A stretch of 64,000 bases of DNA, taken from assembly GCA_026396115.1 (NCBI GenBank), contig JAPLXL010000001.1, positions 2,761 to 66,760 on the forward strand, given 5' to 3'. Under the pieces are notes generated by a model that searched no databases, was not told the origin of the DNA, and worked only from the letters and a program-made list of their open reading frames with translations. The number at the start of each line of letters is the position of its first letter. Position 1 is the stretch's first letter. Positions 5,008 through 63,931 of the stretch are shown here, piece by piece. This DNA comes from Candidatus Nealsonbacteria bacterium. GTDB taxonomy: Bacteria > Patescibacteriota > Minisyncoccia > Minisyncoccales > RBG-13-42-11. The translations under genes and the position numbers were made by a program.

Positions 5008-5066
5008 GGCGAAGAGAACTCTGTTCTCTTCTTCACCTTCGTCCCGCTATCGCGGGACTCGGTAAT
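5008..5066 (+). repeat. Family-1 palindromic mini-element, short form
   Basis: GGCGAAGAGAAC-TCT-GTTCTCTTC TTCACCTTCG TCCCGC-TAT-CGCGGGA CTCGGTAAT. Confidence 0.85.
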
Positions 5067-5089
5067 TAATTTTTAATCTCGACTTTTTG

Positions 5090-11555: not shown

Positions 11556-12830
11556 TTAGTCCTGAGTTGTTTTAGTCGTCTTTTTCTTTTTGATTTCTTT
11601 TTCAACAGGCGAAGAGGACTTCGTCCTCTTCTTCACCTTCGCTTCCATAGATGGAAGCTCGGTTTCTAATTTTTCTCCCTCCTCTTCTTTTTTATCTTTT
11701 TCGTCCTCTCTTGGAGATCTGATGTCTATTTTCCAACCGGTTAGTTTTGCCGCCAATCTTACATTCTGACCATCTTTGCCAATAGCCAAAGACAATTGAT
11801 CTTCGGAAATAATAACTTGGGCTTTGTTTTTGGGCATTATTTTTACCTCTAAGGACTTGGCAGGCGACAAGGAATTGGCAATATACTTTTCTGGCTCCGG
11901 AGAATATGCGACAATATCAATTTTTTCTCCTGCCAACTCATTAATTACAGCCATAACCCTCGTTCCTTTTTGGCCAATCATGCTGCCAATAGGGTCAACT
12001 CCTTCAATGTCGGAGCATACCGCAATTTTAGACCTGGAACCTGGCTCTCTGGCGATTGACTTTATCTGAACTTGACCTGAAGAAACTTCCGGCACCTCCA
12101 ACTCAAAAAGTTTTGAAATTAATTTGGGGTAAGCCCGAGATAAAATTATGGCCGGCCCTCTTGGCGTTTCTTCAACTTTTAAAAGATAAACCTTGAGCCG
12201 TTGGCCCGGCCGATAAAATTCTCCCGGCACCTGTTCTTCTTTTGGCAAGACGCCAAGGGTTTTGCCAATATCTAAAAAAACATTTCTTCCTTCAATTCTT
12301 TGAACAATTCCGGAAATTATTTCTCCTTCCTTGGCCTTGTATTCATCCAAAATACTTTCTTTTTCTGCTTCTCTAATTCTTTGTAAAATAACTTGTTTTG
12401 CGGTCTGGGCAGCAATCCGACCATAATCTATTTTTGTTTCCAAGGGAATTTCTAATTCTTGAGCAACCTTAATCTTTGGGTTTATTTTTTTTGCTTCTTT
12501 GAGCATAATATGCTTTTCAGGATTAAAACGAACTTTTTTACCGGCCGAAACTTCGCCGGCCACGGGCTTTTCTCCCACCTTCGTTTCCATTTGTGAAAGC
12601 TCGGTTTCAGAATAAATCATGTCTTTATCGATAATTAATTTTACTTGCCAAAACTTAACATCGCCTGATTCCGGATCAAGTTTAGCTTTGATTATCTGTC
12701 CTTTTTTTCCGTAATCTTTTTTATAGGCAGCGGCAATCGCCATTTCAATGGTTCCCAAAACCTTTTCCGTAGAAATACCTTTTTCTTCGGCAATCTGAGC
12801 AATGGCTGACATGAAGTTTTTTATATCCAT
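11556..12830 (-). CDS. nusA: Transcription termination/antitermination factor NusA; C-terminal tail partly encoded by a repeat element
   Basis: The N-terminal NusA signature, S1 domain and two KH-like regions are recognisable. The last ~40 aa overlap family-1 element 11608-11665. Confidence 0.92.
   Translation of the reverse strand: MDIKNFMSAIAQIAEEKGISTEKVLGTIEMAIAAAYKKDYGKKGQIIKAKLDPESGDVKFWQVKLIIDKDMIYSETELSQMETKVGEKPVAGEVSAGKKVRFNPEKHIMLKEAKKINPKIKVAQELEIPLETKIDYGRIAAQTAKQVILQRIREAEKESILDEYKAKEGEIISGIVQRIEGRNVFLDIGKTLGVLPKEEQVPGEFYRPGQRLKVYLLKVEETPRGPAIILSRAYPKLISKLFELEVPEVSSGQVQIKSIAREPGSRSKIAVCSDIEGVDPIGSMIGQKGTRVMAVINELAGEKIDIVAYSPEPEKYIANSLSPAKSLEVKIMPKNKAQVIISEDQLSLAIGKDGQNVRLAAKLTGWKIDIRSPREDEKDKKEEEGEKLETELPSMEAKVKKRTKSSSPVEKEIKKKKTTKTTQD
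11608..11665 (+). repeat. Family-1 mini-element inside the 3' end of nusA
   Basis: GGCGAAGAGGAC-TTC-GTCCTCTTC TTCACCTTCG CTTCCAT-AGA-TGGAAG CTCGGTTTC. Confidence 0.85.
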
Positions 12831-16445: not shown

Positions 16446-16524
16446 CTGGAAATTGGGGCGGGGTGAAAATCCTGGCGGGGGCACCAAAAACAATTTTTAA
16501 TTTTCAATTATTAATTTTAAAATA

Positions 16525-16622
16525 GTCGAAGAGATAAATCTCTTCTTCACCTACCCGAGTCGCAACGAAGGGTAGAGAAGAAGGAATCTTCTTTGACTTC
16601 GCTTCCTTCGGAAGCTCGATAT
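16525..16622 (+). repeat. Family-1 mini-element, long form, ending at the rpsO start codon
   Basis: GTCGAAGAGAT-AA-ATCTCTTC ... CTTTGACTTCG CTTCC-TTC-GGAAG CTCGATAT, then ATG. Confidence 0.85.
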
Positions 16623-16889
16623 ATGATTACGCCAGAAGAAAAAGAAAAAATAATCAAAAGCTATAAACTGCACGATTTAGATACGGGTTCTCCGGAAGTT
16701 CAGGTTGCTCTGTTGTCAGAAGAAATCAAGCAATTGCTTTTACATTTGAAAAAGCATGCTAAAGATTTTCATTCAAAAAGAGGGTTATTAAAAATGGTTT
16801 CAAAAAGAAGGACTTTGTTAAATTATTTAAAGCAGGAAGACACAAAAAGATATAATAGTATAATTAAAAAAATAGGGTTGAAGAAATAA
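16623..16889 (+). CDS. rpsO: 30S ribosomal protein S15
   Basis: [38 protein letters not shown]...; 88 aa. The 10 extra N-terminal codons in the track ORF lie in the repeat element. Confidence 0.93.
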
Positions 16890-16900: not shown

Positions 16901-17407
16901 ATGATAATTAAACATTTCGGACAACGCGTAGCCGTCTTAATTGACGTTCAAAATCTTTATCACTCTGCCAAAAATCTTTATGGAGCCCGCGTTAATTTCG
17001 GAGCCATTTTAAAATCAACTGTTTCTGGCAGAATCCTAATCAGGGCTTTTGCTTACGTTGTCAGAACAAAAAGCGGAGAAGAAAAGCCGTTTTTTGAGGC
17101 CTTAATCAAGCTAGGAATTGAAACCAGGGTTAGAGATCTGCAGGAATTTTTTGGCGGCTTAAAAAAAGCTGACTGGGACGTGGGAATTACGGTTGATGCC
17201 ATAAGAATTGCTCAAAGCTGCGATACAATTATTTTGTGTTCTGGCGATGGCGACTTTATCCAGTTGGTAGAATATTTGAAAAACCAAGGAAAAAGAGTGG
17301 AAATCGTTGCTTTTGGAAGATCGTCTTCTTCTAAATTAAAAGAAGTTGCAGATGAGTTTATTGATTTGGAAAAAAGCCTGGAAAAATATTTATTAAAAAC
17401 AAAATGA
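16901..17407 (+). CDS. NYN/LabA-like domain protein
   Basis: RVAVLIDVQNLYHSAKN...ILCSGDGDFIQLVEYLKNQGKRVEIVAF. Confidence 0.8.
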   Translation: MIIKHFGQRVAVLIDVQNLYHSAKNLYGARVNFGAILKSTVSGRILIRAFAYVVRTKSGEEKPFFEALIKLGIETRVRDLQEFFGGLKKADWDVGITVDAIRIAQSCDTIILCSGDGDFIQLVEYLKNQGKRVEIVAFGRSSSSKLKEVADEFIDLEKSLEKYLLKTK

Positions 17408-17409
17408 TG

Positions 17410-17469
17410 CTCAATGAATTTTCAATTCATTTCAATCTTCGATGTTCAATAAATTTTTAATTTATTTCA
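17410..17469 (+). repeat. Family-2 double-hairpin element abutting the pnp start codon
   Basis: AATGAATT-TTC-AATTCATT ... AATAAATT-TTT-AATTTATT TCA, then ATG. Confidence 0.75.
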
Positions 17470-19602
17470 ATGAATAAAGAAATTTTCAAACTAAATATTG
17501 GCGGAAAAGAGTTAAAGGTTGAAGTCAGAAATTTAGCCGAACAAGCTTCAGGCGATGTTTTAGTTCAGTATGGAGAAACTATGGTTTTGGCGACAGCAGT
17601 TATGTCAAATTACGAAAGAGAAGGAATAGATTTTTTTCCTTTAACGGTTGATTACGAAGAAAGATATTATGCCGCCGGCAAAATTCTGGGCTCAAGATAT
17701 ATCAGAAGAGAGAGCCGGCCTTCAGACGAGGCCATTTTAACTTCAAGATTTATTGACAGAGCAATAAGACCAAGATTTCCCAAGCACTTAAAAAAAGAGG
17801 TTCAGGTAGTAGTTACTTGCCTTTCCTGGGACAAGGAAAACGATCCCGACATTATTGGTTTGCTTGCTGCTTCCCTGGCCTTATCTATTTCTAATATTCC
17901 TTGGTCAGGCCCGATAGCAGTTTTAAGGGTTGGCAAAAACGAAAAAGATTTTATTCTTAATCCTATTTATCAAGAAAGAGAAAAAAATGATCTGGATTTG
18001 GCAATAGCGGGGGTGAAATCTCATGAAATTTTAATCAATATGATTGAAATGGAGGGAAGCGAAGTAACAGAAGATATGATTTTAAAAGCAGTAGATTTTG
18101 CTAAACCTACTCTTGAAAAACTGATTGATTTTCAAAAAGAAATTGTTAAAAAAGTTGGCAAGGAAAAAGATAAAATAGAAACACCTGCAAAGGATTTGGA
18201 ACTGGAAAAAGAAATTAAAGATTTTCTTGGCTCAAGATTAGAAAAAGCTCTTTTCCGAAAAGACAAAGTTAGCCGAATGGATGAAGTTAATGCCTTGAAA
18301 GAAGAATTGATTTATTATATTCAAGGAAAATATCCTGTTGGTAGGGGCAAAGAGGATAAATCCTCTTCTTTACCCTTAGCTGCGGCTCGGGTTTTTGAAG
18401 AAGAAATAGAAAAATTAGTTCATGAAAATGTTATTAAATTTGAAAAGAGGCCTGACAATAGAAAAATTGATGAAATAAGAAATATCCAATGTGAAGTGGG
18501 ACTATTACCCAGAACCCATGGCTCCGGTCTTTTTATTAGAGGACAAACTAAAGCTCTCTCCATTTTAACCTTGGGGGCACCGGGGGATGTAAGGTTGCTT
18601 GAGGGAATGGAAGCAACCTACAAAAAAAGATTTATGCACCACTATAATTTCCCTCCTTATTCTGTCGGAGAAGTAAAACCAATGAGGGGGCCGGGCAGAA
18701 GAGAAATAGGACATGGAATGCTGGCAGAAAAAGCTTTAATGTCATTGGTCCCCAGTTTTGATGATTTTCCTTATACCATTAGAATAGTCACCGAAATTCT
18801 CTCGTCTAACGGTTCAACCTCGATGGCCTCTGTTTCAAGTAGTTCTCTGGCCTTAATGGATGCCGGAGTGCCAATAAAAAGACCGGCTGCCGGAATTGCT
18901 TTAGGATTAATGCAGGACAATAAAGGAGATTACAAAATTTTAACCGACATTCAGGGACCGGAAGATCATCACGGCGACATGGATTTCAAAATCGCCGGGA
19001 CAGAAAAAGGAATTACCGCCATTCAAATGGATGTTAAAAATGATGGAATTGACAAAGAAATTTTAGAAAAAACCTTGTCTCAAGGAAAAAAAGCAAGGCT
19101 TCAAATTTTAAACGAAATGGCAAAAGTAATTTCAAAACCAAGGCCAGAACTATCGTCCCATGCTCCCAGAATATTGATATTACAAATAAATCCTATTAAA
19201 ATAAGAGAAGTGATTGGTCCTGGCGGAAAAGTAATCAATGAAATTATTGATGAGTGTGGAGCTTCAATAGACATTGAGGACTCGGGCAGAATTTTTGTAA
19301 CAGCCGAAAGGGAAGAGGCAGCAAAAAAAGCCGTTGAAAGGATAAAGAACATTACTCGCGAAGTTAAGGTAAACGAAGTTTTTCAGGGAAAAGTTAAAAG
19401 AATTTTGGATTTTGGAGCTTTTGTTGAAATTTTGCCCGGACAAGAAGGATTGGTTCATATTTCTCAATTGGCTCCTTATCACGTCAATAAAGTGGAAGAT
19501 ATTGTTAAGACGGGGGACATTATCCCGGTTAAAGTAATTTCAATTGACGAACAGGGAAGAATAAATCTGTCTCTCAAAGAGGCAAAAAGTAAGCCCCGTT
19601 AG
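17470..19602 (+). CDS. pnp: Polyribonucleotide nucleotidyltransferase (PNPase)
   Basis: Two RNase PH-like halves, then KH and S1 at the C-terminus. It carries an in-frame family-1 repeat insertion at 18346-18393. Confidence 0.95.
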   Translation: MNKEIFKLNIGGKELKVEVRNLAEQASGDVLVQYGETMVLATAVMSNYEREGIDFFPLTVDYEERYYAAGKILGSRYIRRESRPSDEAILTSRFIDRAIRPRFPKHLKKEVQVVVTCLSWDKENDPDIIGLLAASLALSISNIPWSGPIAVLRVGKNEKDFILNPIYQEREKNDLDLAIAGVKSHEILINMIEMEGSEVTEDMILKAVDFAKPTLEKLIDFQKEIVKKVGKEKDKIETPAKDLELEKEIKDFLGSRLEKALFRKDKVSRMDEVNALKEELIYYIQGKYPVGRGKEDKSSSLPLAAARVFEEEIEKLVHENVIKFEKRPDNRKIDEIRNIQCEVGLLPRTHGSGLFIRGQTKALSILTLGAPGDVRLLEGMEATYKKRFMHHYNFPPYSVGEVKPMRGPGRREIGHGMLAEKALMSLVPSFDDFPYTIRIVTEILSSNGSTSMASVSSSSLALMDAGVPIKRPAAGIALGLMQDNKGDYKILTDIQGPEDHHGDMDFKIAGTEKGITAIQMDVKNDGIDKEILEKTLSQGKKARLQILNEMAKVISKPRPELSSHAPRILILQINPIKIREVIGPGGKVINEIIDECGASIDIEDSGRIFVTAEREEAAKKAVERIKNITREVKVNEVFQGKVKRILDFGAFVEILPGQEGLVHISQLAPYHVNKVEDIVKTGDIIPVKVISIDEQGRINLSLKEAKSKPR
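18346..18393 (+). repeat. Family-1 mini-element, in-frame inside pnp
   Basis: GGCAAAGAGGAT-AAA-TCCTCTTC TTTACCCTTAGCTGCGGCTCGGGTT; 48 nt encoding GKEDKSSSLPLAAARV. Confidence 0.75.
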
Positions 19603-19637
19603 AAATGATATTTCTAAATGGGTAAATAATAATTCAT

Positions 19638-19739
19638 AAACCGAGCCCCGAGTAGTGGGGCGAAGTCGAAGAAGATTCCTTCTTCTCCACCTCAGCTGAA
19701 GCTTCGGTAGGTGAAGAAGAGGACGAAATCCTCTTCGCC
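19638..19739 (-). repeat. Family-1 mini-element, long form, inverted orientation
   Basis: Positions 19661-19721 are 61/61 identical to 59671-59731. It ends 15 nt before the ATG at 19754. Confidence 0.9.
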
Positions 19740-19753: not shown

Positions 19754-22700
19754 ATGGAAGAAGAAAATAAAAAACTAGAATTTTTGAAAAAAGAGAAAGT
19801 CAGAACAATGCAAAAAGATATTGCCAGCTTGGAAGAATTGGGGAGCCAAAGAGAAAGTGAGGAGAGAGAAGAGGTCGCGGTTGAAAAAACAGAAGAAAAA
19901 ATAGAGGCTGTGGCCAAAGAGGAAGAAAAAGAAAGACAAGAAAAACTTGAGAAACTTTTGGCAGAAAAAAGAGCGGCAGCACAGGCAGAAATAGAAAGAG
20001 CAAAAGAAGAAGAGGAAAGGAAGAAAATTGCTGAGGAAGAAATGAAAAAAAGAGTCGCCGAAGAAGAAGAAAGAAGAAGAAAAGAAGAAAAGCTCTTGGC
20101 AGAAAGAACCGAGGAGGAAAAAATAGCTGAAATTGATAAAGAAATTGAAAATATCGGCCTGGAAAAAAAGAGAGTAAACGAAGAAAAGGAGCGATTTTTA
20201 GCTGGGATTAAAAATTTTGAAATTCAATTAGAACCGATTTTGAAGGAAGAGGAGATTATTGAAAATAAAATTTTGGAAATTGAAGAATTAGAAAAAACAG
20301 CTCCTTTTGAAAAAAGAAGTCAAATTGAAAAGAAAAGATGGGAAACGGATGCCAAAAGACGAGATATTGAAAAAACAAAATGGTCAATCCAGGAAGAAAT
20401 AGAAAAAACGGAAGAAAAAATTAAAACGATTGAATTAAAATACCAGGAAGTTTTAAAAAAGGAAGAAAGATTCAAAGCAGAAAAGGAAAAAATTTTCCGA
20501 AAAAGACAAGAAAAAGAATCGACTCGGGAAAAATCTCTCTTGAAAAACGAAATTTTTCAGTTAATCGACGAGAAAAAAATAATAGAAAACAAAGAAAATG
20601 AACTTTTGGCAAAGAAAAACAGAATTGAAACTGAGTTAAAAGAACTTTTAAAAGAAGAACAAATTACCGAAGAGGTGATTAGAGATATTGAAAAAAGAGA
20701 AAAAGAAATTTCGGATCCAAAAGAGCAAAGAAAAGTTGAAAAAGACAGGTGGAAAGTTGAAGATGACAGAAAAACATTGGAAGGAAAAAGATGGGAATTA
20801 GAACAAGAAAAAAAAGATTTTTCCACTGAATTAAAAAAGATAGAAGAAGAATATCAGAAAATTTTGGAAAAAGAAACCCCTTTAAGAGAAAGATTAAAAG
20901 AAATTAATCGTTTATTAAGAATATCTCCGGGAGAGGAATCTCTAGAAAAAGAGGAGGAAAAAGAGGAAATGATAACGGAAGATAAAAAAAAACTTTTTGA
21001 AAAACTTGAAGAAGAAAAAACAACAATAGGATTAGAAAAAAGAGCAGTAACACAAGTCCCCACACCAAAATTTGATAGTGAGGAGCAAATAGAAATAGAA
21101 AGGGCAAAAGAGAAAGAGGAGAGGAAGAAAATTGCTGAAGAAGAAATGAGAAAAAGAATCGCCGAAGAAGAAGAAAGAAGAAGAAAAGAGAAACTTTTGG
21201 CAGAAAAAAGAAGATTAGAGGAAAATCAAATAAAAATAACCGAAGAAAATCCTCCTTTTGAAAATTCAGAAGTCAAAGAGGATAAATCCTCTTCTTCAGC
21301 CACCGAGCTTTCGCACAGCGAAAGTGAAGGTGAAAAAGAGGCTCGCCTCTTTGACTTCGCTGCGACTCGGACAATAAAAGAAGAAACATCGGAAACTTTA
21401 ATTCCCAAATTACCCAAAAAACCTTCTCCTATTCAAAAAATCTTAATTAGGGCTTTAATATTTGCCATTCTTTTATCTGTAATTGGATTTCTTTACTGGT
21501 TTTTTACGGTGAAAAAAGTTGAACAGCAGAAAATAATTCTGCCGCCGGAAGAAAAAAAAGAGGAAGAAAGGAACAAATACCCGGAAATTATAATTCCTGC
21601 TTCCTTAATTTCAGTAGACACTACAGAAACTCTGGAAATTATGAATTCTTCAGAAATTCCAGGGTTGCTCCCTCAACTTCTGGAAAAAACCTTTGAAACA
21701 GGAGAATACATCAGAATTTTATTTAAGAATATAAACGAAAATAAGGTTGTCGGTCTAAAAGAGTTTTTTGAAGCTTTTGAAGTTAAAACTCCCGAAAAGC
21801 TTTTAGAAAAACTGAACAACGATTTCACTTTATTCATTTTTTCCAGTGGAAATAAAAACCATTTAGGTTTTGTAACTAAAATTGAAAACAAAGAAAACCT
21901 TCTAAATTCATTGTTCTCCTGGGAGGCAACAATGGAAAAAGATACAGAAAAACTCTTTGAAGTTTTGGGCAAAGAAAAGCCGGCTCTGTCTTCAAGTTTT
22001 AAAACCAGTTTCCACCAAGAAATAAGTTTTAGATTTTTAACCATTTCTCAAGAAGATTTTGGAATTTGTTATGCCTGGTTTGATGATTATTTTGTTTTTA
22101 CCTCTTCCTTTGAAAACATAAAAAAGACAATTGATTTAATAAAGGCCAGCACATTGGAAAATCAGGTTGGTCAGATGTTTATTATTGGGTTTGAAGGCAA
22201 AACTGTTACTCCTCAATTAGAGGAGTTTTTTCATAAATATAAACCTGGAGGTATCCTTTTGCTGTCAAAAAACATTGAAAGCGCAGAACAATTAAAAAAA
22301 CTTACTAAAGACCTCCAAAATCTTTCTTTAAGAGAAACCGGTCTTCCTCTTTTTATTACTATTGACCAAGAGGGCGAAATTATCTCCAGAGTGGATTTTC
22401 TCCAAGAAAAAACCCTTCAGTCAGAAATTGAAGACACAGATGAAGCTTATCAGATTGGCTTGACAAGGGGCCAAGAATTAAAAGAATTAGGAATTAATCT
22501 TAATCTGGCTCCGCTGTTAGATGTTACCGAGGAAACAGATTTTTTATTCAATCGCTCTTTTCAAAAAAATGCAGCCAGAACCGGAAATCTGGCAAAGTCT
22601 TTAATTGAAGGACAAAAAACAGCAAACATTTTAACTGCTGTCAAACACTTCCCGGGATATGGCGGAATTTCTTTTAACCCGGAGGAAACTTTAGCTAAAA

Positions 22701-23101
22701 CAGAAACATTGCCAGAAATATTTCAATTCAAAAAAGCAATTGAGGCTAACCCTGAATTTATCATGACCGCCAACATGGTTTATAAAAATCTTGACCCAAA
22801 TCTACTCTTTACATTCTCTCCGACAGCTATCCAATTTTTAAAAGACAATTTGGGCTCTGAAATTATAATCATTAGCGACGATTTAGCCCAAAAGTATCTC
22901 TTGGCAAATTTTTCTTTAAAAGATATAATGATTAAACCAGTTCAGGCTGGTGTAAATCTTTTAATTTTTTCCGGCTGGGAAATAAGCGTTTCTGAAGGGT
23001 TAGATATTTTTTTTGATACTTTTAAAAAAGGAGGGGTTTCTCAATCTAAAATTAAAGAATCGCTATCAAAAATTATTAAAATAAAAGAGAGATTAATGTA
23101 A
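19754..23101 (+). CDS. Large membrane protein: Glu/Lys-rich coiled-coil N-terminal half, TM segment, C-terminal glycoside hydrolase family 3 (NagZ-like) domain
   Basis: The C-terminus has GQMFIIGFEGKTV...GGILLLSKNI...KHFPGYGG. There is a TM segment at ILIRALIFAILLSVIGFLYWFF and an internal duplication ERAKE.EERKKIAEEEM.KR.AEEEERRRKE. Confidence 0.75.
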   Translation: MEEENKKLEFLKKEKVRTMQKDIASLEELGSQRESEEREEVAVEKTEEKIEAVAKEEEKERQEKLEKLLAEKRAAAQAEIERAKEEEERKKIAEEEMKKRVAEEEERRRKEEKLLAERTEEEKIAEIDKEIENIGLEKKRVNEEKERFLAGIKNFEIQLEPILKEEEIIENKILEIEELEKTAPFEKRSQIEKKRWETDAKRRDIEKTKWSIQEEIEKTEEKIKTIELKYQEVLKKEERFKAEKEKIFRKRQEKESTREKSLLKNEIFQLIDEKKIIENKENELLAKKNRIETELKELLKEEQITEEVIRDIEKREKEISDPKEQRKVEKDRWKVEDDRKTLEGKRWELEQEKKDFSTELKKIEEEYQKILEKETPLRERLKEINRLLRISPGEESLEKEEEKEEMITEDKKKLFEKLEEEKTTIGLEKRAVTQVPTPKFDSEEQIEIERAKEKEERKKIAEEEMRKRIAEEEERRRKEKLLAEKRRLEENQIKITEENPPFENSEVKEDKSSSSATELSHSESEGEKEARLFDFAATRTIKEETSETLIPKLPKKPSPIQKILIRALIFAILLSVIGFLYWFFTVKKVEQQKIILPPEEKKEEERNKYPEIIIPASLISVDTTETLEIMNSSEIPGLLPQLLEKTFETGEYIRILFKNINENKVVGLKEFFEAFEVKTPEKLLEKLNNDFTLFIFSSGNKNHLGFVTKIENKENLLNSLFSWEATMEKDTEKLFEVLGKEKPALSSSFKTSFHQEISFRFLTISQEDFGICYAWFDDYFVFTSSFENIKKTIDLIKASTLENQVGQMFIIGFEGKTVTPQLEEFFHKYKPGGILLLSKNIESAEQLKKLTKDLQNLSLRETGLPLFITIDQEGEIISRVDFLQEKTLQSEIEDTDEAYQIGLTRGQELKELGINLNLAPLLDVTEETDFLFNRSFQKNAARTGNLAKSLIEGQKTANILTAVKHFPGYGGISFNPEETLAKTETLPEIFQFKKAIEANPEFIMTANMVYKNLDPNLLFTFSPTAIQFLKDNLGSEIIIISDDLAQKYLLANFSLKDIMIKPVQAGVNLLIFSGWEISVSEGLDIFFDTFKKGGVSQSKIKESLSKIIKIKERLM
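21271..21372 (+). repeat. Family-1 mini-element, in-frame inside the 1115-aa gene
   Basis: GTCAAAGAGGAT-AAA-TCCTCTTC ... GCTTTCGC-ACA-GCGAAAG ... CTTTGACTTCGCTGCGACTCGG; 102 nt encoding VKEDKSSSSATELSHSESEGEKEARLFDFAATRT. Confidence 0.75.
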
Positions 23102-23104
23102 AAA

Positions 23105-23215
23105 AACAATATTCAATGAATCTTCGATTGTCGAGCTTCCGAAGGAAGCGAAGATGAAGAAGAGATTTATCTCTTCGACTCATCTCACTTTTCAATAAAT
23201 TTTCAATTTATTTCA
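23105..23215 (+). repeat. Family-2 element carrying a nested 51-nt family-1 insertion (23130-23180)
   Basis: With 23130-23180 removed, the sequence aligns with the reverse complement of 39508-39565 (ttcaatgaatcttcgatt|catctcac.tttcaataaattttcaatttatttc). Confidence 0.85.
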
Positions 23216-23605
23216 ATGGATAAAAACTTGATAAATCAATTAAAAGAAAAATTAGAGAAAGATAAAAAAAATATTGAAAAACAGCTTGAAAAATTTGCCA
23301 CTAAAGATGAAAAACTCAAGGACGACTGGGATACTCGTTTTCCCCGTTTTGATGGCAGAGAAACAGGGTCAGCTGCCCTGGAACAGGCAGCTGACGAAGT
23401 AGAAGAATACAGCACTCTTTTACCTATTGAATATAGCTTGGAATTATGGTTAAAAAACATTAATTTAGCTTTGGAAAAAATCAAAATTGGCAAATACGGA
23501 ATTTGCGAAAAATGCCAAAAAAGAATCAAAGAAGAAAGACTCAAAATTTATCCTGTTGCCCAATATTGCTTAAATTGCAAAAAGCCCAAGAAAACTCAAG
23601 CTTAA
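23216..23605 (+). CDS. DksA/TraR-family C4 zinc-finger protein
   Basis: CEKCQKRIKEERLKIYPVAQYCLNC (CxxC-N17-CxxC) at the C-terminus. Confidence 0.8.
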   Translation: MDKNLINQLKEKLEKDKKNIEKQLEKFATKDEKLKDDWDTRFPRFDGRETGSAALEQAADEVEEYSTLLPIEYSLELWLKNINLALEKIKIGKYGICEKCQKRIKEERLKIYPVAQYCLNCKKPKKTQA

Positions 23606-23617
23606 ACATTTTTTTTT

Positions 23618-23773: not shown

Positions 23774-23811
23774 ATCATTGTTTTCTTTCTTTTCACTGAT
23801 ATAATTAATAA

Positions 23812-23935: not shown

Positions 23936-25993
23936 ATGATAGAAACAATTAAAGAAAAACTTAAATCAGCTATCTCTTTTTTTAAAACACGGGAGTTTTC
24001 TGAGCGGTCAGCTCTTTTGACCACCATCTTGGCTTTTGTTCTAATTTTAGTGGTGTTTTTCTTAATTATAAGGGTCGTTTTACCCAGAACCAAAGTTGAA
24101 ATCAATATTTCGGGACCGGAAACAGCAAAAGTCGGAGAAGAAATAACTTATACCGTAACTTGTAAGAACACAGGGAATGTTGTTTTAAAAAATCCGGAAT
24201 TGGTTTTTAATTATCCGTCTTTTTCTCTGCCGGAAAAAAGTTTAATCGAGACAATAATATTAGGAGAATCTCTTTACCCCAACGAAGAGAAAGTGCTTAA
24301 CTTTAAAGCGCAGCTTTTTGGAACGGAAGGCGAAAGAAGAGAAGCCAAAACTTGGTTGAATTATTCTAAGGGAAAGCAACCAGCAATAAAAATGTCAAAA
24401 GTTGCCAATTTTTCTAGTCTTATTTCCGAAGTACCAATAGATTTTATTTTGGATATCCCTAAAAAAATTCCAATATCTCCCAAAACGGAAACCGAGTTCA
24501 TTTTTAGGCTAAGATATTTTTCCTTAATTGACCACACTATTTCCAATTTAAAACTATCTATAAATTTTCCTTTTGATTTTACTTTTAAAGAATCAATGCC
24601 TCCAAAGACGGAGGAGCAAAAATGGGAAATTCCAAAATTAGAATATCTTGGCGGAAAAGAAGCGGAAATAACAGGATCTTTTCCCCAGGGACAAGAGATC
24701 GGAAAAGAATTAGATTTCAGCGCTCAATTATTCATTAATCTTAACGGCCAAGACGTTTTATTAAAAGAAGTTTCGGCCCGCTCTGTCACCTATGAACCCA
24801 ATTTCTTGTTTTCTCAAAAAATTAATAATCAAGAAAAATACTTTCCCTATTCCGGAGAAAGACTCTATTACGAAATTTATTTTAAAAATATCCAAGATAA
24901 GCCTTTGAGAGATCTGGTTTTAACTACTGTTTTGGAAGGAAATCTTTACGATCTGTCTACCATTGAAACTCCTTTGGGAGAATTTCCCAAAGGAGGAAAC
25001 TCTATCTCTTGGAATGGAGAAAAAATTCCCCAGCTTAGATATTTAACGCCTGGCGAAGAGGGCAAGGTAGAATTTTGGGTCCAATTGAAAGAAGATTTCA
25101 AACCAAAAGATTTAACTGAAACCAACGCCTTAATAAAAAATAGGGTAATCTTGGCCGGTTTTGAAGCAGAATTTAGAAACCGAGTTAATTCTCAAATAAA
25201 AATCTCTCAGGAAGGTTATTTTAAAGACAAATATGGATTTTTTGAAAACCCCGGCCAACATCCTCCTCAAGTAAACGAAACTACTAATTATACAATTGTT
25301 TGGAAACTTGAAAATTATTATAATTGGATAGAAAACGCCATAATCAAAGCCACCCTTCCTTCGGGAGTTTATTTTAGAAGCGTTAAACCCACCCATGGAG
25401 AAATGAAGGTTATAACGGATCCTCTTCAAATGAAAGGTTCTTATCCGGAAATTCCAACAACCTTCAGGTTTGAAAAACCATTATACGAAGGACTAAGCAG
25501 CGAAGAGGTTCGGTATCTCCAAATTATACTTAAAAGAGAGGTTCCTTATTGGTATCCGGCAAATGTGCCAACTACCGGTTATTTCGGAAGAACAACTCTT
25601 GCTGCTGTAAAAGGCTTTCAAGAAAAATACAGAAAAGAAATATTAGAGTCTCAAAATCTCGAAAATCCCACCGGCTATGTTGACGAAGTGACACGGCTAA
25701 AACTTAATGAATTATTAATTAAAGGGATGCCTTTGGGTCCTACCGAAGTAATTTGGGAAATCGAAAATATCAATCCCGGAGTGGGAGTTTTAGAAGATCC
25801 CTGGATTGCTGCTTTCCAAATCGCTTTTGTTCCTGATTTAATTCAGAGAGGGAAAATCGCGACGCTAATTAACGAGGTTATATTTTCAGCAAAAGACCAA
25901 TGGACGGAAATGATCGTTTCTTCAAGCGACGAACCAATAGATACTACCCTGCCCGATGATCTTACCGTAGAAAAAGTGGGAAAAATTCGCTAA
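23936..25993 (+). CDS. Membrane-anchored protein with repeat-fold domains and a peptidoglycan-binding (PG_binding_1-like) module
   Basis: N-terminal TM segment. GEEITYTVTCKNTGNVVLKNPELVF resembles a DUF11-type repeat. LSSEEVRYLQIILKRE...GYFGRTTLAAVKGFQEKY is PG-binding-like. Confidence 0.65.
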   Translation: MIETIKEKLKSAISFFKTREFSERSALLTTILAFVLILVVFFLIIRVVLPRTKVEINISGPETAKVGEEITYTVTCKNTGNVVLKNPELVFNYPSFSLPEKSLIETIILGESLYPNEEKVLNFKAQLFGTEGERREAKTWLNYSKGKQPAIKMSKVANFSSLISEVPIDFILDIPKKIPISPKTETEFIFRLRYFSLIDHTISNLKLSINFPFDFTFKESMPPKTEEQKWEIPKLEYLGGKEAEITGSFPQGQEIGKELDFSAQLFINLNGQDVLLKEVSARSVTYEPNFLFSQKINNQEKYFPYSGERLYYEIYFKNIQDKPLRDLVLTTVLEGNLYDLSTIETPLGEFPKGGNSISWNGEKIPQLRYLTPGEEGKVEFWVQLKEDFKPKDLTETNALIKNRVILAGFEAEFRNRVNSQIKISQEGYFKDKYGFFENPGQHPPQVNETTNYTIVWKLENYYNWIENAIIKATLPSGVYFRSVKPTHGEMKVITDPLQMKGSYPEIPTTFRFEKPLYEGLSSEEVRYLQIILKREVPYWYPANVPTTGYFGRTTLAAVKGFQEKYRKEILESQNLENPTGYVDEVTRLKLNELLIKGMPLGPTEVIWEIENINPGVGVLEDPWIAAFQIAFVPDLIQRGKIATLINEVIFSAKDQWTEMIVSSSDEPIDTTLPDDLTVEKVGKIR

Positions 25994-31488: not shown

Positions 31489-31533
31489 ATAAAACAGAGT
31501 TTTGATATGTCAGACAAAGCCTGTTATAATAGA

Positions 31534-31630
31534 GTCGAAGAGATAAATCTCTTCTTCAACTACCGAAGCTTTAGCTGAGGTGGAGAAGAAGAAATCTTCT
31601 TCGACTTCGCTTCCTTCGGAAGCTCGATAA
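31534..31630 (+). repeat. Family-1 mini-element, long form, 16 nt upstream of the ATG at 31647
   Basis: Its core is the reverse complement of the 61-nt block shared by 19661-19721 and 59671-59731 (a few mismatches). It ends CTTCC-TTC-GGAAG CTCGATAA. Confidence 0.85.
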
Positions 31631-31646
31631 TTGAAAATTAATTATT

Positions 31647-32069
31647 ATGAGATTTACTATTCCACAATTTATTGAACATGAAGCAAAAATCATCGGACCC
31701 TTGACTTTTAAACAGGTTATTTTTATTGGAACGGCTGGAGTTATTTGTTTTATTCTTTATTTTTTGGTACCTTTTTCGGTCTTCTTGGTTGCTTGTGTTA
31801 TCCTGGTAGGCGGGGGAATTGCCTTGGCTTTCTTGAAAATCGGTGGCAGATCTTTACCTTTAACTTTAGTCAACTTCTTGAAATTCAGCGTTATGCCCAA
31901 AATCTATATTTGGAAAAAAAGAGAGCAATCAGGGATAAATGTTTATAAAAAGAAAACGGAGTTCCGCGCAGCTTTATCTGTAGAGAAGGGCGAAGAGTCA
32001 CCTTTGAAAATCGGAGGGAAAAGCCAACTTAAAAAATTACACAATGAAATTGAAATTAAAACAAAATAA
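31647..32069 (+). CDS. PrgI-family membrane protein (T4SS-associated)
   Basis: MRFTIPQFIEHEAKIIGPLTFKQVIFIG plus two TM helices. It lies immediately upstream of a VirB4-like ATPase. Confidence 0.65.
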   Translation: MRFTIPQFIEHEAKIIGPLTFKQVIFIGTAGVICFILYFLVPFSVFLVACVILVGGGIALAFLKIGGRSLPLTLVNFLKFSVMPKIYIWKKREQSGINVYKKKTEFRAALSVEKGEESPLKIGGKSQLKKLHNEIEIKTK

Positions 32070-38358: not shown

Positions 38359-39507
38359 ATGAAGATTACTATTTTAAAAGATAAACTAAAAGAAGGTATT
38401 AATATAATTGAAAAAATTTCAACCAAATCGATAAGTTTACCAATTTTAAATAATGTTTTAATTTCGACTGAAAAAAATTTTTTAAATTTAACCACCACCG
38501 ATTTAGAAGTCGGAGTAAAATGGTGGTCACTTATTAAGACGGAAAGAGAAGGAAAAGTTGCTGTTCCTTCAAGAATTCTATCCGGTTTTATTAATTTTTT
38601 ACCGAACAGATTGGTAAATTTAGAATTAGAAGATTTTAATTTAAAAATTAAATGTGAAAATTATGAAACAACAATAAAAGGTGTTAACCCGGAAGATTTT
38701 CCCATCATTCCTCAAGTTTCTGACGAAGAAAAGATTGAAGTTCAAATTAAATCTTTTTGTAAAAGTTTAAGTAGCGTGGTGGATGTCGCCAGTATTTCTT
38801 CAACTAAACCAGAAATTTCAGGAGTTTATTTTATCTTTCAAAAAAATTTAATAACAATGGCAGCTACCGATAGTTTCCGTTTAGGAGAGAAGAAAATTTA
38901 TTTAGATTCTCCTTTAAATAATATTTCTAAAGATTATTCATTGATTCTTCCCCAAAAAGCGGCCAAGGAAATTATTAATATTTTTGGCGAAAAAGAAGGT
39001 GTTTTAACAATTTATTTTTCTCCTAATCAAATTTTGTTTGAGACTTCTCTTTTAGAGGTTTCTCACCCCCAAATTCAACTTACTTCAAGATTGATTGAGG
39101 GAGATTATCCAAATTACCAAGAAATTATTCCCAAAAGATACGATACTCGTATTATTTTTTCTCTTGAAGAATTCATCAACCAAATTAAATTGGCATCGCT
39201 TTTTAGCGGGAAAATCAACGAAATTAAATTGAAAATTGATCCCTCAAAAAATCAAATTAATTTTTTTAGTCAAAACTCCGACGTTGGAGAATATCAAAGT
39301 TTTCTGATTGGTAAAGTAGAGGGAAAACCTTGTGAAATTTCTTTTAATTATCGATTTTTATTAGATGGCCTTTTAAACCTTAGCTCCTTGCAACAAAAAA
39401 AACCAGAAGCTGTTTTAGAACTAACTGGCTCAGAAAAGCCGGGTATTTTAAGATTAAAGGATGAAGAGAGTTATCTTTATTTAGTCATGCCGATCAAAAG
39501 CAGTTAA
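38359..39507 (+). CDS. dnaN: DNA polymerase III beta sliding clamp
   Basis: MKITILKDKLKEGINIIEKI..., 382 aa, directly downstream of dnaA. Confidence 0.92.
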   Translation: MKITILKDKLKEGINIIEKISTKSISLPILNNVLISTEKNFLNLTTTDLEVGVKWWSLIKTEREGKVAVPSRILSGFINFLPNRLVNLELEDFNLKIKCENYETTIKGVNPEDFPIIPQVSDEEKIEVQIKSFCKSLSSVVDVASISSTKPEISGVYFIFQKNLITMAATDSFRLGEKKIYLDSPLNNISKDYSLILPQKAAKEIINIFGEKEGVLTIYFSPNQILFETSLLEVSHPQIQLTSRLIEGDYPNYQEIIPKRYDTRIIFSLEEFINQIKLASLFSGKINEIKLKIDPSKNQINFFSQNSDVGEYQSFLIGKVEGKPCEISFNYRFLLDGLLNLSSLQQKKPEAVLELTGSEKPGILRLKDEESYLYLVMPIKSS

Positions 39508-39565
39508 ACCTAGAAATAAATTGAAAATTTATTGAAAGGTGAGATGAATCGAAGATTCATTGAAC
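39508..39565 (-). repeat. Family-2 double-hairpin element, empty-site version
   Basis: The minus strand reads GGTTCAATGAATC-TTC-GATTCATCTCACCTTTC AATAAATT-TTC-AATTTATT TCTAGG. Confidence 0.8.
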
Positions 39566-43591: not shown

Positions 43592-44323
43592 TTATAATTT
43601 TAAATTTGAATATATTTCCTGGACTGCGTCGTTTTCGTCTAGAATTTCAAAAAGTTTTTGGCAGGCTTCTTTTGTTTTTTTATCAACAGAAATTTCTTCC
43701 TTGGGCATCAAGTCCAGTGAGGTTGCGTCAATTTTTATTTCTTTTTCTTCTAATTTTTTCTTTACCGCGTCCAGGTCTTTAGGATTTGTGTAAACGTCTA
43801 AAGTGTTGTCGTACCAATAAACGTCCTCGGCACCGGCCTCAATAGCCGTTAATTCCAGGTCGTCCTTATTTTTAATCTTTGGCTGTTCATCCGGCTTGAC
43901 GGTAATTGCCCCTCTTTTTTCAAAAAGCCATTTTACCGACCCTTCTCCAGCCAGTTTTCCCTGATTTTGATTTAAGATTTGTTTGATTTCTCCAAGCGTG
44001 CGATTTTTGTTGTCGGTAATTCCTTCAACAATAATGGCTATGCCTCCCGGGCCGAAGGCCTCAAAAACCACTTCAGTTAAGTTGGTCCCTTCTTCTCCTC
44101 CAGTTGCCTGCTTTATAGCCCGTTCAATATTTTCTTTGGGTAAATTAAAACCCTTGGCTTGCTCAATTGCCACTTTTAGCTTCGTATTGGTTTCAGGGTT
44201 TGGTCCTCCATCTTTTACCGCAATCGAAATTACTCTAGCCATTTTGGAAAAAATTTGGCCTCTTTTTTGGTCGGTAATATCCTTTTGGTGTTTTATGGTT
44301 CGCGCATGGCTATGACCGCTCAT
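43592..44323 (-). CDS. yebC: YebC/PmpR-family transcriptional regulator
   Basis: MSGHSHARTIKHQKDITDQKRGQIFSKMARVISIAVKDGGPNPETN... Confidence 0.92.
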   Translation of the reverse strand: MSGHSHARTIKHQKDITDQKRGQIFSKMARVISIAVKDGGPNPETNTKLKVAIEQAKGFNLPKENIERAIKQATGGEEGTNLTEVVFEAFGPGGIAIIVEGITDNKNRTLGEIKQILNQNQGKLAGEGSVKWLFEKRGAITVKPDEQPKIKNKDDLELTAIEAGAEDVYWYDNTLDVYTNPKDLDAVKKKLEEKEIKIDATSLDLMPKEEISVDKKTKEACQKLFEILDENDAVQEIYSNLKL

Positions 44324-44874
44324 ACTTTTTTATTATATCCCTTTTTAATTTTATTTTTAAGTATTAAAATTATTACTCCGAAAAAAATAGCGAGACCTAA
44401 AGCGATTAAAAAAATATGTAAAGAATCAAATGCTCTAGGAAGCTGTTCGCCGATGTCTGCCAATTGCTGTTTTTGAAATTGATTTTTTTGTAATTCTTTG
44501 TTTGGTTCGACTTTTTCTTTTTGGCCAATTTCGTTTTGAGTTGCCGGCAATGACGTTATATTGACGGAGCCCTGAGTTAGAACAGAACTCCAAACCCAAC
44601 CGTTTTCTGTTTTATTATAGGATTGGTCCAGAGGAGCTTTTTGATAGTTGACCTTATCTAATATATTCCCATTTGGCTGGATAAGCAATAATCCGTCTTC
44701 GTCATTATTTAAAGTGATTTTACTTTCGGGTCGGGGAAGAACTAAAAATCCTTGGGCTGAAATTTTTGTTCCAGCAGGAAGCATATAAGTAGTGGTTCCG
44801 CCGGCCGTGTCAACTATTTGCCATTTAGAGAGATCTACTTCAAAATTATTTTGGTTAAAAATCTCAATCCATTC
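44320..44874 (-). pseudogene. C-terminal fragment of a lamin-tail-domain (LTD) membrane protein split by the integrated element
   Basis: It encodes ..EEWIEIFNQNNFEVDLSKWQIVDTAGG... and a C-terminal TM segment. The first 16 codons of track ORF 44320-44925 come from element DNA. Confidence 0.8.
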
Positions 44875-59625: not shown

Positions 59626-59646
59626 GAAAGGTTAAAATTAAATTAG

Positions 59647-59794
59647 TTACCGAGCTTCCATTTATGGAAGCGAAGTCGAAGAAGATTCCTTCTTCTCCAC
59701 CTCAGCTGAAGCTTCGGTAGGTGAAGAAGAGTGCGAAGAAAAGTTTTTCTTCTTTCGTCTCGTCTTTGACTCGACGGTCGAAGTTCTCTTCGCC
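59647..59794 (-). repeat. Family-1 mini-element, longest composite copy, 21 nt upstream of the pilB-like start
   Basis: It contains the 61-nt block identical to 19661-19721 plus a block that is the reverse complement of 32698-32770. Confidence 0.9.
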
Positions 59795-63916: not shown

Positions 63917-63931
63917 ATGGAAGTTAGGCCT

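Follow-up and report, generated by a model that had tools for sequence, protein, structure and literature searches.

In the stretch of DNA analysed here (64,000 nt, hereafter the window), the spacer between a glycoside hydrolase family 3 (GH3) gene and a dksA-like gene contains two hairpin elements, one nested in the other. The inner unit belongs to F1, a family of GC-rich double-hairpin elements, and the outer one to F2. The features at this locus are:

19754..23101, + strand: upstream gene, with a C-terminal GH3 domain (Pfam) and its stop codon 10 nt ahead of F2
23112..23129, + strand: left part of F2, with hairpin 1 up to the fourth nucleotide of its 3' arm (5' arm TTCAATGAATC, loop TTC, then GATT)
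23130..23180, - strand: inserted F1 unit of 51 nt, a GC-rich double hairpin (nhmmer E = 1.4e-12 to the family profile)
23181..23214, + strand: right part of F2, which completes the 3' arm of the first hairpin (CAT) and continues with the linker CTCACTTT, then hairpin 2 (CAATAAATT-TTC-AATTTATT)
23216..23605, + strand: downstream gene, for a DksA/TraR-type zinc-finger protein (Pfam), its ATG one base past F2

A single base (23215) lies between the end of F2 and the ATG at 23216, and sequence inspection shows no Shine-Dalgarno-like stretch between the two. The exact DksA-like protein (23216..23605) was looked up and no record of it was found. A further nested F1 pair is located inside the GH3 gene, at 21272-21353 (nhmmer).

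The sequence-only reading had proposed that 23105-23215 carries a sequence that recurs in the window, interrupted by 51 nt, and this is borne out by sequence comparison. Positions 23112-23129 and 23181-23214 together are the reverse complement of 39513-39564, with the 51-nt string GTCGAGCTTCCGAAGGAAGCGAAGATGAAGAAGAGATTTATCTCTTCGACT (23130-23180) between them. The left flank TTCAATGAATCTTCGATT (23112-23129) agrees with the reverse complement of 39547-39564 at 18/18 bases and the right flank (34 nt) with that of 39513-39546 at 33/34 bases, the chance expectation for each 24-nt element half being 0.00 (dinucleotide shuffles). The homology covers 23112-23214 apart from the insert, but not 23105-23111, which has no counterpart in 39513-39564. 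The insertion point falls within the 3' arm of hairpin 1 (ATGAATC-TTC-GATT^CAT), as claimed. Its boundary is ambiguous by 1 nt (T), with 23129-23179 also possible. MAFFT likewise aligns the two loci with a single 51-nt gap, but shifts this gap 9 nt leftward, because the final 9 nt of the insert, TCTTCGACT, agree with the left flank TCTTCGATT at 8/9 positions. The placement of the sequence-only reading costs 0 mismatches and that of MAFFT 1.

In DNA folds, the empty F2 element makes both hairpins (z = -5.3 to -5.5), and the filled element is without hairpin 1 and has the insert's own two hairpins (GAAGAGA-TAAA-TCTCTTC and GCTTCC-TTC-GGAAGC). The consensus orientation of the insert (GTCGAAGAG..GGAAGCTCGAC) is on the - strand. 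The GTCGA/TCGAC ends ascribed to these elements are present on the insert; however, they are a trait of one subfamily, and the consensus GGCGAAG...CTCGGT pairs only 3 bp.

Two other sites in the window are directly comparable:

39513..39564, - strand: uninterrupted F2 copy, in which both hairpins fold; conserved in the relative L192
36103..36152, + strand: closest paralogue of the insert in the window (49/50 identity), between rnpA and yidD; present in L192

The uninterrupted copy takes up the 58 nt that separate dnaN (38359..39507) from the class A PBP gene (39566..41593), two genes that are convergent. The C-terminal coding region of the PBP itself resembles a degenerate F1 hairpin, and a local alignment misleadingly paired the insert with it. 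An orthologous empty site is seen in contig Ga0315296_10003441 (L187), which is 95.5% identical to the window over 12 kb and carries CTTCGATTCATTTC uninterrupted in its GH3-dksA spacer. The 51 nt at 23130-23180 are an insertion polymorphism. The uninterrupted spacer of this relative upholds the proposal that a family-1 unit entered a family-2 element by being copied as one discrete block, and further support comes from the identity of the insert, at 50/50 positions, to L192:8050-8099, a unit in the rnpA-yidD spacer of L192. The paralogue at 36103-36152 sits within an AT hairpin of F2 type, in the 3' arm (reverse complement reading GATAAATT-TTC-AATT^A..unit..^TTATTTC), and its relative position in this host hairpin is that of the 23129/23130 junction. 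In the distant ortholog L069 there is no spacer between rnpA and yidD. The same 51-nt unit is found on its own both at 36103-36152 and in L035.

Family-2 copies with and without an insert were found elsewhere too. About 70-90 copies with an intact hairpin 1 are present in metagenomes, and L098/L150 have a different unit at the identical point GATT^CAT. Hairpin 1 is intact in most of the ~90 metagenomic F2 copies, its uninterrupted form being a perfect 7-bp hairpin, and most F2 copies elsewhere finish TTTATTTC(A/G)ATG at a start codon. Within the window, the F2 pair compared here agrees at 51/52 positions, a closer likeness than that between orthologous F2 copies in the window and in L187. Families 1 and 2 had been treated as separate kinds, a division that does not hold: F2 is an AT-rich version of F1 with the same build (hairpin / TCACCTT linker / hairpin), and hybrid F1-F2 elements exist (L024).

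F1 is found in about 26 Patescibacteria assemblies, in both orientations, with true copies at ~65 of 94 genome loci. Copies are 90-97% identical between genomes whose genes share only 68-76% identity. In an alignment of 59 distinct copies, pairing holds for 97.4% of stem cells, and two-sided stem changes number 106, compared with 24 in shuffles; covariation is seen at 11/15 stem pairs. The family is large, and both its stems are maintained by compensatory changes. Wobble pairs in the stems (14 G.T, 12 A.C) show no strand asymmetry. In-frame copies are carried inside enolase, PheT, LigA, LeuRS, MetRS, CCA-adding enzyme, NusA and PNPase, falling within Pfam domains of enolase, PheT, LigA, LeuRS and others; coding-sequence copies are spread over no fewer than four reading frames. 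L024 has a MetRS ortholog without the insert. At gene starts, 27/104 copies end exactly 2 nt ahead of an ATG (ORF of at least 60 aa) and 31 end within 12 nt. A Shine-Dalgarno or anti-Shine-Dalgarno role of TCACCTT/AAGGTGA was rejected, as spacing to the start codon is inconsistent and both orientations are found. A hammerhead or other ribozyme was also rejected, as core motifs are missing and there is no Rfam match. A scan of the whole window against Rfam 15 at gathering threshold returned only LOOT and tRNAs and no family for the element, and with E up to 10 on 23050-23990 and 59600-59900 only noise was seen.

The further copies in the window are:

5008..5070, + strand: simple F1 of the GGCGAAG..CTCGGT type, intergenic
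11608..11670, + strand: simple F1, translated in frame on the opposite strand in the NusA C-terminal tail (TELPSMEAKVKKRTKSSS)
12568-12613: degenerate F1 within the NusA N-terminal domain
16524..16627, + strand: composite F1 just upstream of rpsO, an outer unit plus a 43-nt inner unit
17407..17469, + strand: F2 copy immediately adjoining the pnp ATG; L187 lacks its first hairpin module (35 nt)
18346..18393, + strand: F1-like copy within the coding sequence for PNPase; its place in L187 is taken by a shorter, unrelated stretch
19633..19739, - strand: composite F1 in the pnp-GH3 spacer; its 45-nt inner unit is absent in L187
23813..23939, + strand: two tandem F1 copies, ending 2 nt ahead of the ATG of gene 23936..25993
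31533..31635, + strand: composite F1, outer plus inner unit, conserved in L192
32698..32803, + strand: composite F1 whose hairpin 1 holds a nested 45-nt unit in its 3' arm (TTCGTCC^)
59642..59794, - strand: largest composite F1, with units nested in hairpin 1 and in the linker
63860..63922, + strand: simple F1, intergenic

The inner unit of 16524-16627 has the opposite orientation and is inserted after TTCACC(T). The composite at 31533-31635 is followed by an AT hairpin and then by the start of gene 31647..32069, and the largest composite (59642-59794) is upstream of a T2SSE/PilB-like ATPase gene. Orientation relative to transcription is about 6 to 5 for F1 in the window, and the strand count (10 copies on +, 3 on -) is uninformative about a replication-fork bias.

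The elements turn over quickly among close relatives. About half of the indels of at least 8 nt between the 95%-identical genomes (12 kb, window vs L187) are such units or modules; indels of 43, 35, 45 and 33 nt and one rearranged site are all of this kind. Whole elements are swapped for other variants at the same site (window vs L187, L192): L187 has a different, short F1 at the site of 16524-16627 and a single F1 with a nested unit at that of 23813-23939, and L192 has, at the site of 32698-32803, an F1 with its unit nested in the linker instead, so that nestings differ at one orthologous site. Units are also mosaic, the same 3' half being joined to different 5' halves in the window and L187, and there are many presence/absence pairs across genomes. 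The filled and empty pair had been taken to fix the minimal mobile unit, but it does not do so, as modules of 33, 35, 43, 45 and 46 nt also distinguish close relatives.

Junctions follow a simple rule. The unit end reading (A/G)YCGAG lies exactly 3 nt downstream of TCR, sometimes TTR, and the opposite unit end reads CTTCG(A/C)C, followed by T. Counting from CTCGR, A occupies position +7 in 91/93 copies; G or A is found at +6 in 90/93, and T or C at +5 in 83/93. In an independent set, YGA/YAA is at the motif spot in 44/48 copies, compared with a background of 7.5%. For at least 10 nested cases it can be demonstrated that the TCR+3 stretch comes from the target. Units nest in one another at few fixed points: TTCGATT^ (23105-23215, L098/L150), TTCAATT^ (36103, 31533, L143, L187, L106), TTCACCT^ (the long F1, L050/L204/L116) and TTCGTCC^ (32698). 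Tandem arrays are joined as TTCGACT^ACCGAAG (L078). The element ends 3' in TTCGACT, a mimic of the target TTCGATT, which explains nesting in other elements and head-to-tail arrays. A resemblance like that of the flank and insert end above is also seen at the linker site, between CTTCTTCACCT and CTTCTTCGACT. The association with start codons is also explained by the rule, since ATGA reads TCAT on the other strand. A fixed target duplication as a general feature was rejected (flank repeats average 4.17 matches of 7, vs 3.87 in the control), and the filled/empty pairs have at most a 1-nt ambiguity, so there is no consistent target duplication. A subset of within-gene copies is bracketed by 7-nt direct repeats, which a target-duplication-free mechanism does not predict.

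The best explanation, to which we give a probability of roughly 0.55, is a non-autonomous, site-specific mobile hairpin element that would be moved in trans by an enzyme encoded elsewhere than in the element. At the GH3-dksA spacer, the 51-nt unit would have inserted into the hairpin-1 3' arm of the AT-rich sister element preceding the dksA-like gene, after the split from the 95%-identical relative, and the donor may have been a copy like that in the rnpA-yidD spacer. The putative enzyme would recognise DNA hairpins on one strand, cut and join at the motifs, and resemble the HUH/Y1 transposases of IS200/IS605 and the REP-associated RAYTs. Two traits of IS200/IS605-type elements are found, namely compensated subterminal hairpins at both ends and a short one-strand target without duplication. 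In IS608, cleavage occurs directly after a tetranucleotide; the target motif here is 3 nt off the junction, which is unlike IS608 and counts against a transposition model. A transposase or nuclease recognising the GTCGA termini had been envisaged, but the ORFs of the window, all compared with Pfam, include no transposase, HUH protein or other enzyme that might qualify. The sole recombinase there is the large serine recombinase of a 13-kb integrated island, which contains no copy of the element (nhmmer profile scan). With E. coli RayT as query, tblastn gave nothing in 1.65 Mb of collected loci, and two F1 patterns and an F2 pattern gave chance matches only in IMG/VR viral contigs.

The mosaicism of units and the replacement of whole elements fit recombination at least as well as transposition. 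Modules might have spread by ectopic gene conversion or replication template switching among dispersed similar hairpins, with no dedicated transposition, the TCTTCGA and TTCR motifs serving as microhomology and the stable GAA/TTC triloop hairpins as stalling or switching points. The 8/9 match of TCTTCGATT to TCTTCGACT and the similar resemblance at the linker site point in this direction, as do the mosaics of halves, the variants that differ at orthologous sites in 95%-identical genomes and the failure to find an enzyme in the window or by RayT tblastn; the 51/52 likeness of the window F2 pair, above that of orthologs, suggests within-genome homogenisation. However, units also occupy unrelated single-copy targets without flank homology (many start codons, and inside enolase, LigA, PheT and LeuRS), and the TCR+3 rule still holds in >90% of copies. 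Microhomology of 5-9 nt is also short for RecA-dependent conversion, and purely intragenomic conversion leaves 90-97% identity across ~70%-identical genomes unexplained. Spread of this kind is less likely than the mobile element, although it deserves serious consideration. A more novel reading, which we suggest only tentatively, is an undescribed self-targeting hairpin-module system of Patescibacteria, with units of 33-63 nt, TCR+3 insertion and a mechanism unlike any known transposase family, whose agent might be a host-encoded or still unrecognised single-strand nuclease/ligase. Such a system would build nested and tandem composites, rewrite the sequence just upstream of start codons and add peptides of roughly 20 residues to essential enzymes across the whole superphylum.

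A functional role as cis-acting leaders or punctuation, in which selection had placed structured RNA or protein-binding DNA at gene starts and nesting was a regulatory-module variant rather than a trace of mobility, is unlikely for these elements. The 27/104 F1 copies 2 nt before an ATG, the F2 copies ending at start codons, the stem covariation and a sequence far better conserved than neighbouring genes are consistent with such a role, but the start-codon association is accounted for by the target rule, copies are present in both orientations relative to transcription and in at least four frames of coding sequence, and the copy at 39513-39564 has the stop codon of a convergent gene on either side. 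The gains, losses and replacements at orthologous sites of 95%-identical genomes, and the absence of wobble-pair strand asymmetry and of an Rfam family, also argue against it. Very improbable is a reversed polarity, with the composite at 23105-23215 ancestral and the forms at 39513-39564 and in L187 derived by precise 51-nt deletion. The 8/9 direct repeat TCTTCGAYT around 42 nt could mediate a slippage deletion, and without an outgroup a module deletion between relatives looks the same as an insertion. However, slippage would leave TCTTCGACT, whereas empty copies show TCTTCGATT; the uninterrupted hairpin 1 is the common state (~70-90 copies, many genomes), 39513-39564 represents another locus rather than an allele, and the 51-nt unit is found independently (36103-36152, L035).

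Several known systems resemble the mobile hairpin element proposed here. Rickettsia palindromic elements are ~100-150 nt long and without known transposase (Ogata et al. 2000; discussed in PMC1779305 and the MITE review PMC10969869). They are likewise short palindromic repeats of reduced AT-rich genomes, intergenic as well as in frame in conserved genes, and conserved across species; the present units differ in being 33-63 nt, modular and nested at fixed points, with a target trinucleotide and a host that is Patescibacteria, judging by the names of related MAGs. The two are presumably without sequence relation, and the likeness is one of analogy. Yeast mitochondrial GC clusters (GC42 and similar) have AG as preferred target (PMC4478555), double-hairpin elements are known from Allomyces (Paquin et al. 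2000, as reported in PMC4478555), and sponge mitochondrial DNA has repetitive hairpin-forming elements (PMC2800124). These mitochondrial elements, like F1, are GC-rich units of 1-2 hairpins and tens of bases amid AT-rich DNA, and they share the short target, tandem arrays, strain presence/absence and occasional gene insertion. In contrast to these organellar elements, the present ones are bacterial and unrelated in sequence, use a TCR + 3 nt target, and nest in themselves in opposite orientation at fixed stem or linker positions.

As in IS200/IS605-derived elements and REP/BIME, there is a hairpin per end, with no family-wide terminal inverted repeats, no consistent duplication, a short target resembling the element's own cleavage end, and composite arrays. 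Unlike in IS200/IS605 and RAYT systems, no Y1/HUH gene was found (window Pfam; RayT tblastn over 1.65 Mb), and unlike in IS200/IS605-type elements the target is offset by 3 nt and there is no GTAG-type conserved 5' tetranucleotide. REPs are extragenic, whereas many copies here lie within genes. Classical bacterial MITEs (Correia/NEMIS, ERIC, RUP and Coxiella QMITEs; PMC5896051, PMC3184786) are similarly small, non-autonomous, multicopy, sometimes translated in frame and able to affect neighbouring gene starts. However, the present family lacks family-wide terminal inverted repeats and a fixed-length target duplication, and no parent IS was found (window; RayT query over 1.65 Mb). Literature on hairpin, palindromic or MITE repeats of CPR, Patescibacteria or Parcubacteria yielded no relevant description, with many subscription papers outside coverage, and the family apparently has not been described so far.

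Patescibacteria (CPR) have genomes among the smallest and most gene-dense of bacteria. In these, structural change between near-identical strains comes in large part from a tiny hairpin element; the element lies directly at many start codons, is tolerated in frame within core enzymes and follows a simple target rule. The exact junctions obtained from filled/empty pairs make an enzyme search and in vitro tests directly feasible. In practice, the repeats will break assemblies and mislead gene callers at gene starts, and copies create false 'insertions' in CPR protein alignments.

The region 23095-23225 (+ strand) and the reverse complement of 39500-39575 share, on direct reading, the blocks TTCAATGAATCTTCGATT and CATCTCAC(T/C)TTTCAATAAATTTTCAATTTATTTC, and in the first locus only these are separated by 51 nt, GTCGAGCTTCCGAAGGAAGCGAAGATGAAGAAGAGATTTATCTCTTCGACT. 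The loci are as follows.

23105-23215: filled site, an AT-rich double-hairpin element (family 2, F2) containing a unit of the GC-rich double-hairpin element (family 1, F1)
23130-23180: the 51-nt insert
39513-39564, - strand: empty F2 copy

The filled/empty pair noted in the sequence-only reading is real: the flanks agree at 18/18 positions on the left side and at 33/34 on the right side, and MAFFT also gives one single 51-nt gap, although 9 nt to the left. In shuffled sequence, the chance expectation for each 24-nt half of F2 is 0.00 occurrences. The left flank TCTTCGATT matches the final 9 nt of the insert, TCTTCGACT, at 8/9 positions, a repeat that shifts the MAFFT gap and arises because the unit's own 3' end (TTCGAC+T) is target-like. 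The original gap placement is preferred since it needs zero mismatches, with a 1-nt (T) ambiguity in the insert boundary.

Folded as single-stranded DNA, empty F2 gives two TTC/GAA-triloop hairpins (z ~ -5.4); the filled form loses hairpin 1 and gains the two hairpins of the insert. Of the 114-nt spacer that separates the stop codon of a GH3-domain gene (23101) from the ATG of a dksA/traR-type gene (23216), the composite takes up nearly all: it starts 10 nt past the stop codon and leaves a single base ahead of the ATG. The empty copy almost fills the 58-nt spacer of the convergent dnaN and PBP genes. Directly adjoining it, the last codons of the PBP gene (..LLELPKEQFTP*; 39574-39600, - strand) look like a degenerate F1 hairpin 2 (CTCGAACTTCCTAAGGAAC), which led a permissive local alignment astray.

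Scanning metagenomes for the sequence of F2 hairpin 1 found two close relatives of the window: L187 (Ga0315296_10003441), 95.5% identical to 13904-26136, and L192 (part of Ga0315294_10000005), 95.1% identical to 31313-41598. In the GH3-dksA spacer of L187, hairpin 1 is uninterrupted (..AATGAATCTTCGATTCATTTC..), and this spacer is the orthologous empty site. The earlier claim that the unit was copied as a discrete entity is supported, and now rests on this site; the insertion at 23130-23180 was discrete and recent. The same L187 spacer carries two insertions of its own: a different F1 unit in the linker, in the opposite orientation, and, in hairpin 2, a 46-nt unit that interrupts the 3' arm after TTCAATT^ (^, point of insertion), the counterpart of the GATT^ position in hairpin 1. 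The insert at 23130-23180 is identical at 50/50 positions to the rnpA-yidD unit of L192 and at 49/50 to window 36103-36152. The rnpA-yidD unit is older, being conserved in L192, and given this and the near-identity, the donor was likely a copy of this type.

Indels of at least 8 nt between the window and L187, compared over 12 kb, fall into two groups.

Element modules:
43 nt, nested unit within the rpsO-leader element
35 nt, a single F2 hairpin module ahead of pnp
45 nt, nested unit at 19664
33 nt, at 23833
F1-like stretch inside pnp, replaced
rearranged site (a)
Others:
repeat-length changes, Glu/Lys-rich coding repeat region of the GH3 protein (19.8-21.2 kb)
57 nt, coding, one case
8-10 nt, a few, near 26.0 kb
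790-nt insertion in L187 (reverse complement, ~2436-3226), at the equivalent of window 16388, within the 5' part of tRNA-Lys (16372-16446)

The 790-nt insertion, missing from the window, holds a ~250-aa ORF with a LAGLIDADG-like motif (by eye); after it, the initial ~15 nt of the tRNA are repeated. Structurally different family members occupy the same site in relatives at 16524, 23813 and 32698, and a flank-based search gave many further orthologous presence/absence pairs. The rnpA-yidD junction is filled in the window and has no spacer in the collected locus L069, and the yidC-khpB spacer shows the opposite pattern. The units self-nest and turn over rapidly. At 35100-35150, the yidC-khpB spacer of the window has ~5 ATCAGCG-type 8-9-mers in tandem, then a hairpin GTTCGC-TTCG-GCGAAC; L192 has an F1 element in place of the array.

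The F1 pattern CTTCGCTTCCN{3,6}GGAAGCTCGR matched at least 94 loci of the genome collection. Among the matches listed, true F1 copies were found by nhmmer at ~65 loci in ~26 Patescibacteria assemblies; the remainder, with no true F1 by nhmmer, are chance matches in GC-rich genomes. The consensus of the F1 alignment is GGCGAAGAGGAC-TTC-GTCCTCTTC TTCACCTT CGCTTCC-loop-GGAAGC TCGGT, and copies are 90-97% identical across genomes with only ~70% gene identity. No inverted termini are seen family-wide. The earlier claims of defining termini and of a minimal unit need revision. Paired stem cells reach 97.4%, against 85.5% when shuffled and 45-57% with the partner slid; two-sided changes number 106 (24 in shuffles), and 11/15 pairs covary. 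Both stems are kept by compensatory change, and the hairpins are under selection. G.T mismatches are as frequent as A.C ones (14 vs 12), thus neither strand is favoured as RNA, and no Rfam family matches F1. At least 17 units occur in the window, ~6 in one orientation relative to transcription and ~5 in the other.

When the unit is read (A/G)YCGAG...CTTCG(A/C)C, the preceding base is always the third base after TCR (less often TTR), as in the following targets from the window and collected loci (L-numbers).

TTCGATT^: 23129/23130; L098/L150, with an unrelated unit
TTCAATT^: 36103, 31533, L143, L187, L106
GATTCATT^ or CAGT^: L129, L183, L193, L202, L179, L155, L055
TTCACCT^: all 'long' F1; L050, L204, L116
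TTCGTCC^ or TTCGACC^: 32698 and 59794

In these nested cases the host element is also known uninterrupted, so the motif belongs to the target rather than to the unit. Past CTCGR, +7 is A in 91/93 copies, +6 is G/A in 90/93 and +5 is T/C in 83/93. In an independent metagenome set, 44/48 distinct copies have YGA/YAA at the target position (background 7.5%). The rule also accounts for the 27/104 F1 copies whose end lies precisely 2 nt ahead of the ATG in an ORF of at least 60 aa, since ATGA is TCAT on the other strand. The target is short and strand-defined, without consistent duplication: a fixed target duplication is not supported, the family-wide test being no more than weakly positive.

Families 1 and 2 had been treated as separate kinds, a division that does not hold. 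The F2 consensus across genomes, TCAATGAATC-TTC-GATTCAT TTC(A/G)ATCTT CAATAAATT-TTC-AATTTATT TC(A/G)ATG, has the F1 build of two TTC-loop hairpins with a linker between (CTCACCTT in window F2, TTCACCTT in F1), and hybrids occur: L024 joins F2 hairpin 1, F1 hairpin 2 and F2 hairpin 2. F2 is a dimer of ~30-nt AT-hairpin modules, one of them polymorphic between the window and L187, and most copies end at a start codon. F2 is the same kind of element as F1.

Long ORFs contain many F1 copies, which run in either orientation and occupy several frames.

Enolase: within the TIM-barrel domain (Pfam)
PheT: two copies, one within the B5 domain (Pfam)
LigA: within the adenylation domain (Pfam)
LeuRS: within the editing domain (Pfam)
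MetRS, CCA-adding enzyme and cyclopropane-fatty-acid-synthase-like methyltransferase (Pfam)
NusA (window): two copies
PNPase (window): F1-type copy, 18346-18393, in coding sequence; replaced/absent in L187
GH3-domain protein (window): nested pair, 21272-21353, in coding sequence

Recurrent F1-encoded peptides are TELPxMEAKVKKRTKSSS, RASxxGSEGEEEDEVLFA and AKRTSSSSSPSLPxEAR. In MetRS, L064 and L094 have a unit at the same linker in different frames, and the L024 ortholog is without it. A small ORF at L078:4880-5060 (- strand) contains four head-to-tail 45-nt units, translated in frame as TTEALAEVEKKESSS x4; such arrays follow from the target-like 3' end of the unit. The L078 mobile-element array doubles as a protein repeat. 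In a subset only of coding copies (L079:7380-7500, L064:5800-5930, L088:2140-2250, L019:6440-6550), tandem 7-nt repeats (TTTTGAG, TTTTGAT or CTTTGAA) flank both sides. Since 7 is not divisible by three, an origin as ordinary protein repeats is unlikely for these tracts; repeated insertion and excision may have left them as footprints.

IS200/IS605 TnpA and the REP-associated RAYTs act on hairpins in single-stranded DNA. The most economical reading is that F1 is a non-autonomous element, which would be mobilised in trans by an enzyme handling hairpins in this way. A search for a transposase or like gene found none in the window, nor does the window hold a gene for such a hairpin-handling enzyme, and E. 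coli RayT as query had no match in 1.65 Mb of collected sequence. The main rival, recombination or template switching between similar modules via shared TTCR microhomology, draws support from the mosaic units and from the replacement of variants at fixed sites, but fits poorly with rule-obeying insertions in unrelated single-copy DNA and with conservation across genomes.

Weaker alternatives are that the units are regulatory leaders, which is contradicted by the two orientations, the coding copies and the turnover, and that the polarity is reversed, with empty forms arising by deletion of the unit; the intact hairpin is prevalent, however, and the sequence left at empty sites contradicts deletion. 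Carriage by a phage vector is unlikely because the element is absent from IMG/VR and from a ~13-kb integrated island (44320-58165), inside which neither F1 nor F2 occurs.

By anatomy, the nearest mechanistic model for the trans-mobilised element is IS200/IS605-derived or REP/RAYT elements. Identity as a classical MITE was rejected for F1, since the family lacks shared inverted termini and a fixed duplication, and no parent IS was found. Closest in behaviour are the Rickettsia palindromic elements, with copies read in frame inside conserved genes of a reduced genome (PMC1779305), and also the GC clusters/double-hairpin elements of AT-rich mitochondrial genomes, with a short target, tandem arrays, strain variation and unknown mechanism (PMC4478555; PMC2800124). 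Nothing relevant was found in the literature on CPR/Patescibacteria/Parcubacteria hairpin, palindromic or MITE repeats, of which coverage was incomplete, so that an earlier description is possible. The 23130-23180 insert is the entry point to an element of hairpin modules that is widespread and dynamic in Patescibacteria, follows a simple target rule and is apparently undescribed.

The window has 35% G+C and includes the rnpA-yidD-yidC/dnaA-dnaN region, four tRNAs and a LOOT RNA. Its genes are 68-76% identical (DNA) to MAGs named Candidatus Nealsonbacteria, Paceibacter, Parcubacteria and Patescibacteria (some labelled Saccharibacteria). The ~13-kb island has a large serine recombinase at its head (44864..46543, - strand) and carries the LOOT RNA (49000-49113), an HTH protein, a DnaA-like ATPase and an Eco57I/TaqI-type methylase. 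Each side of the island is bordered by a lamin-tail-domain ORF (44320..44925 and 57401..58165); integration may have split a single gene into these two halves. A 96-nt direct repeat (99% identical; 26078-26173 and 27878-27973), the duplicated 5' end of a ComM/Mg-chelatase-like gene, flanks a 1.8-kb segment with a pilin-like ORF, an arrangement suggestive of insertion into comM. The window opens (3-134) with a 9-nt tandem repeat, AGAGTGTTG, in ~10 copies.
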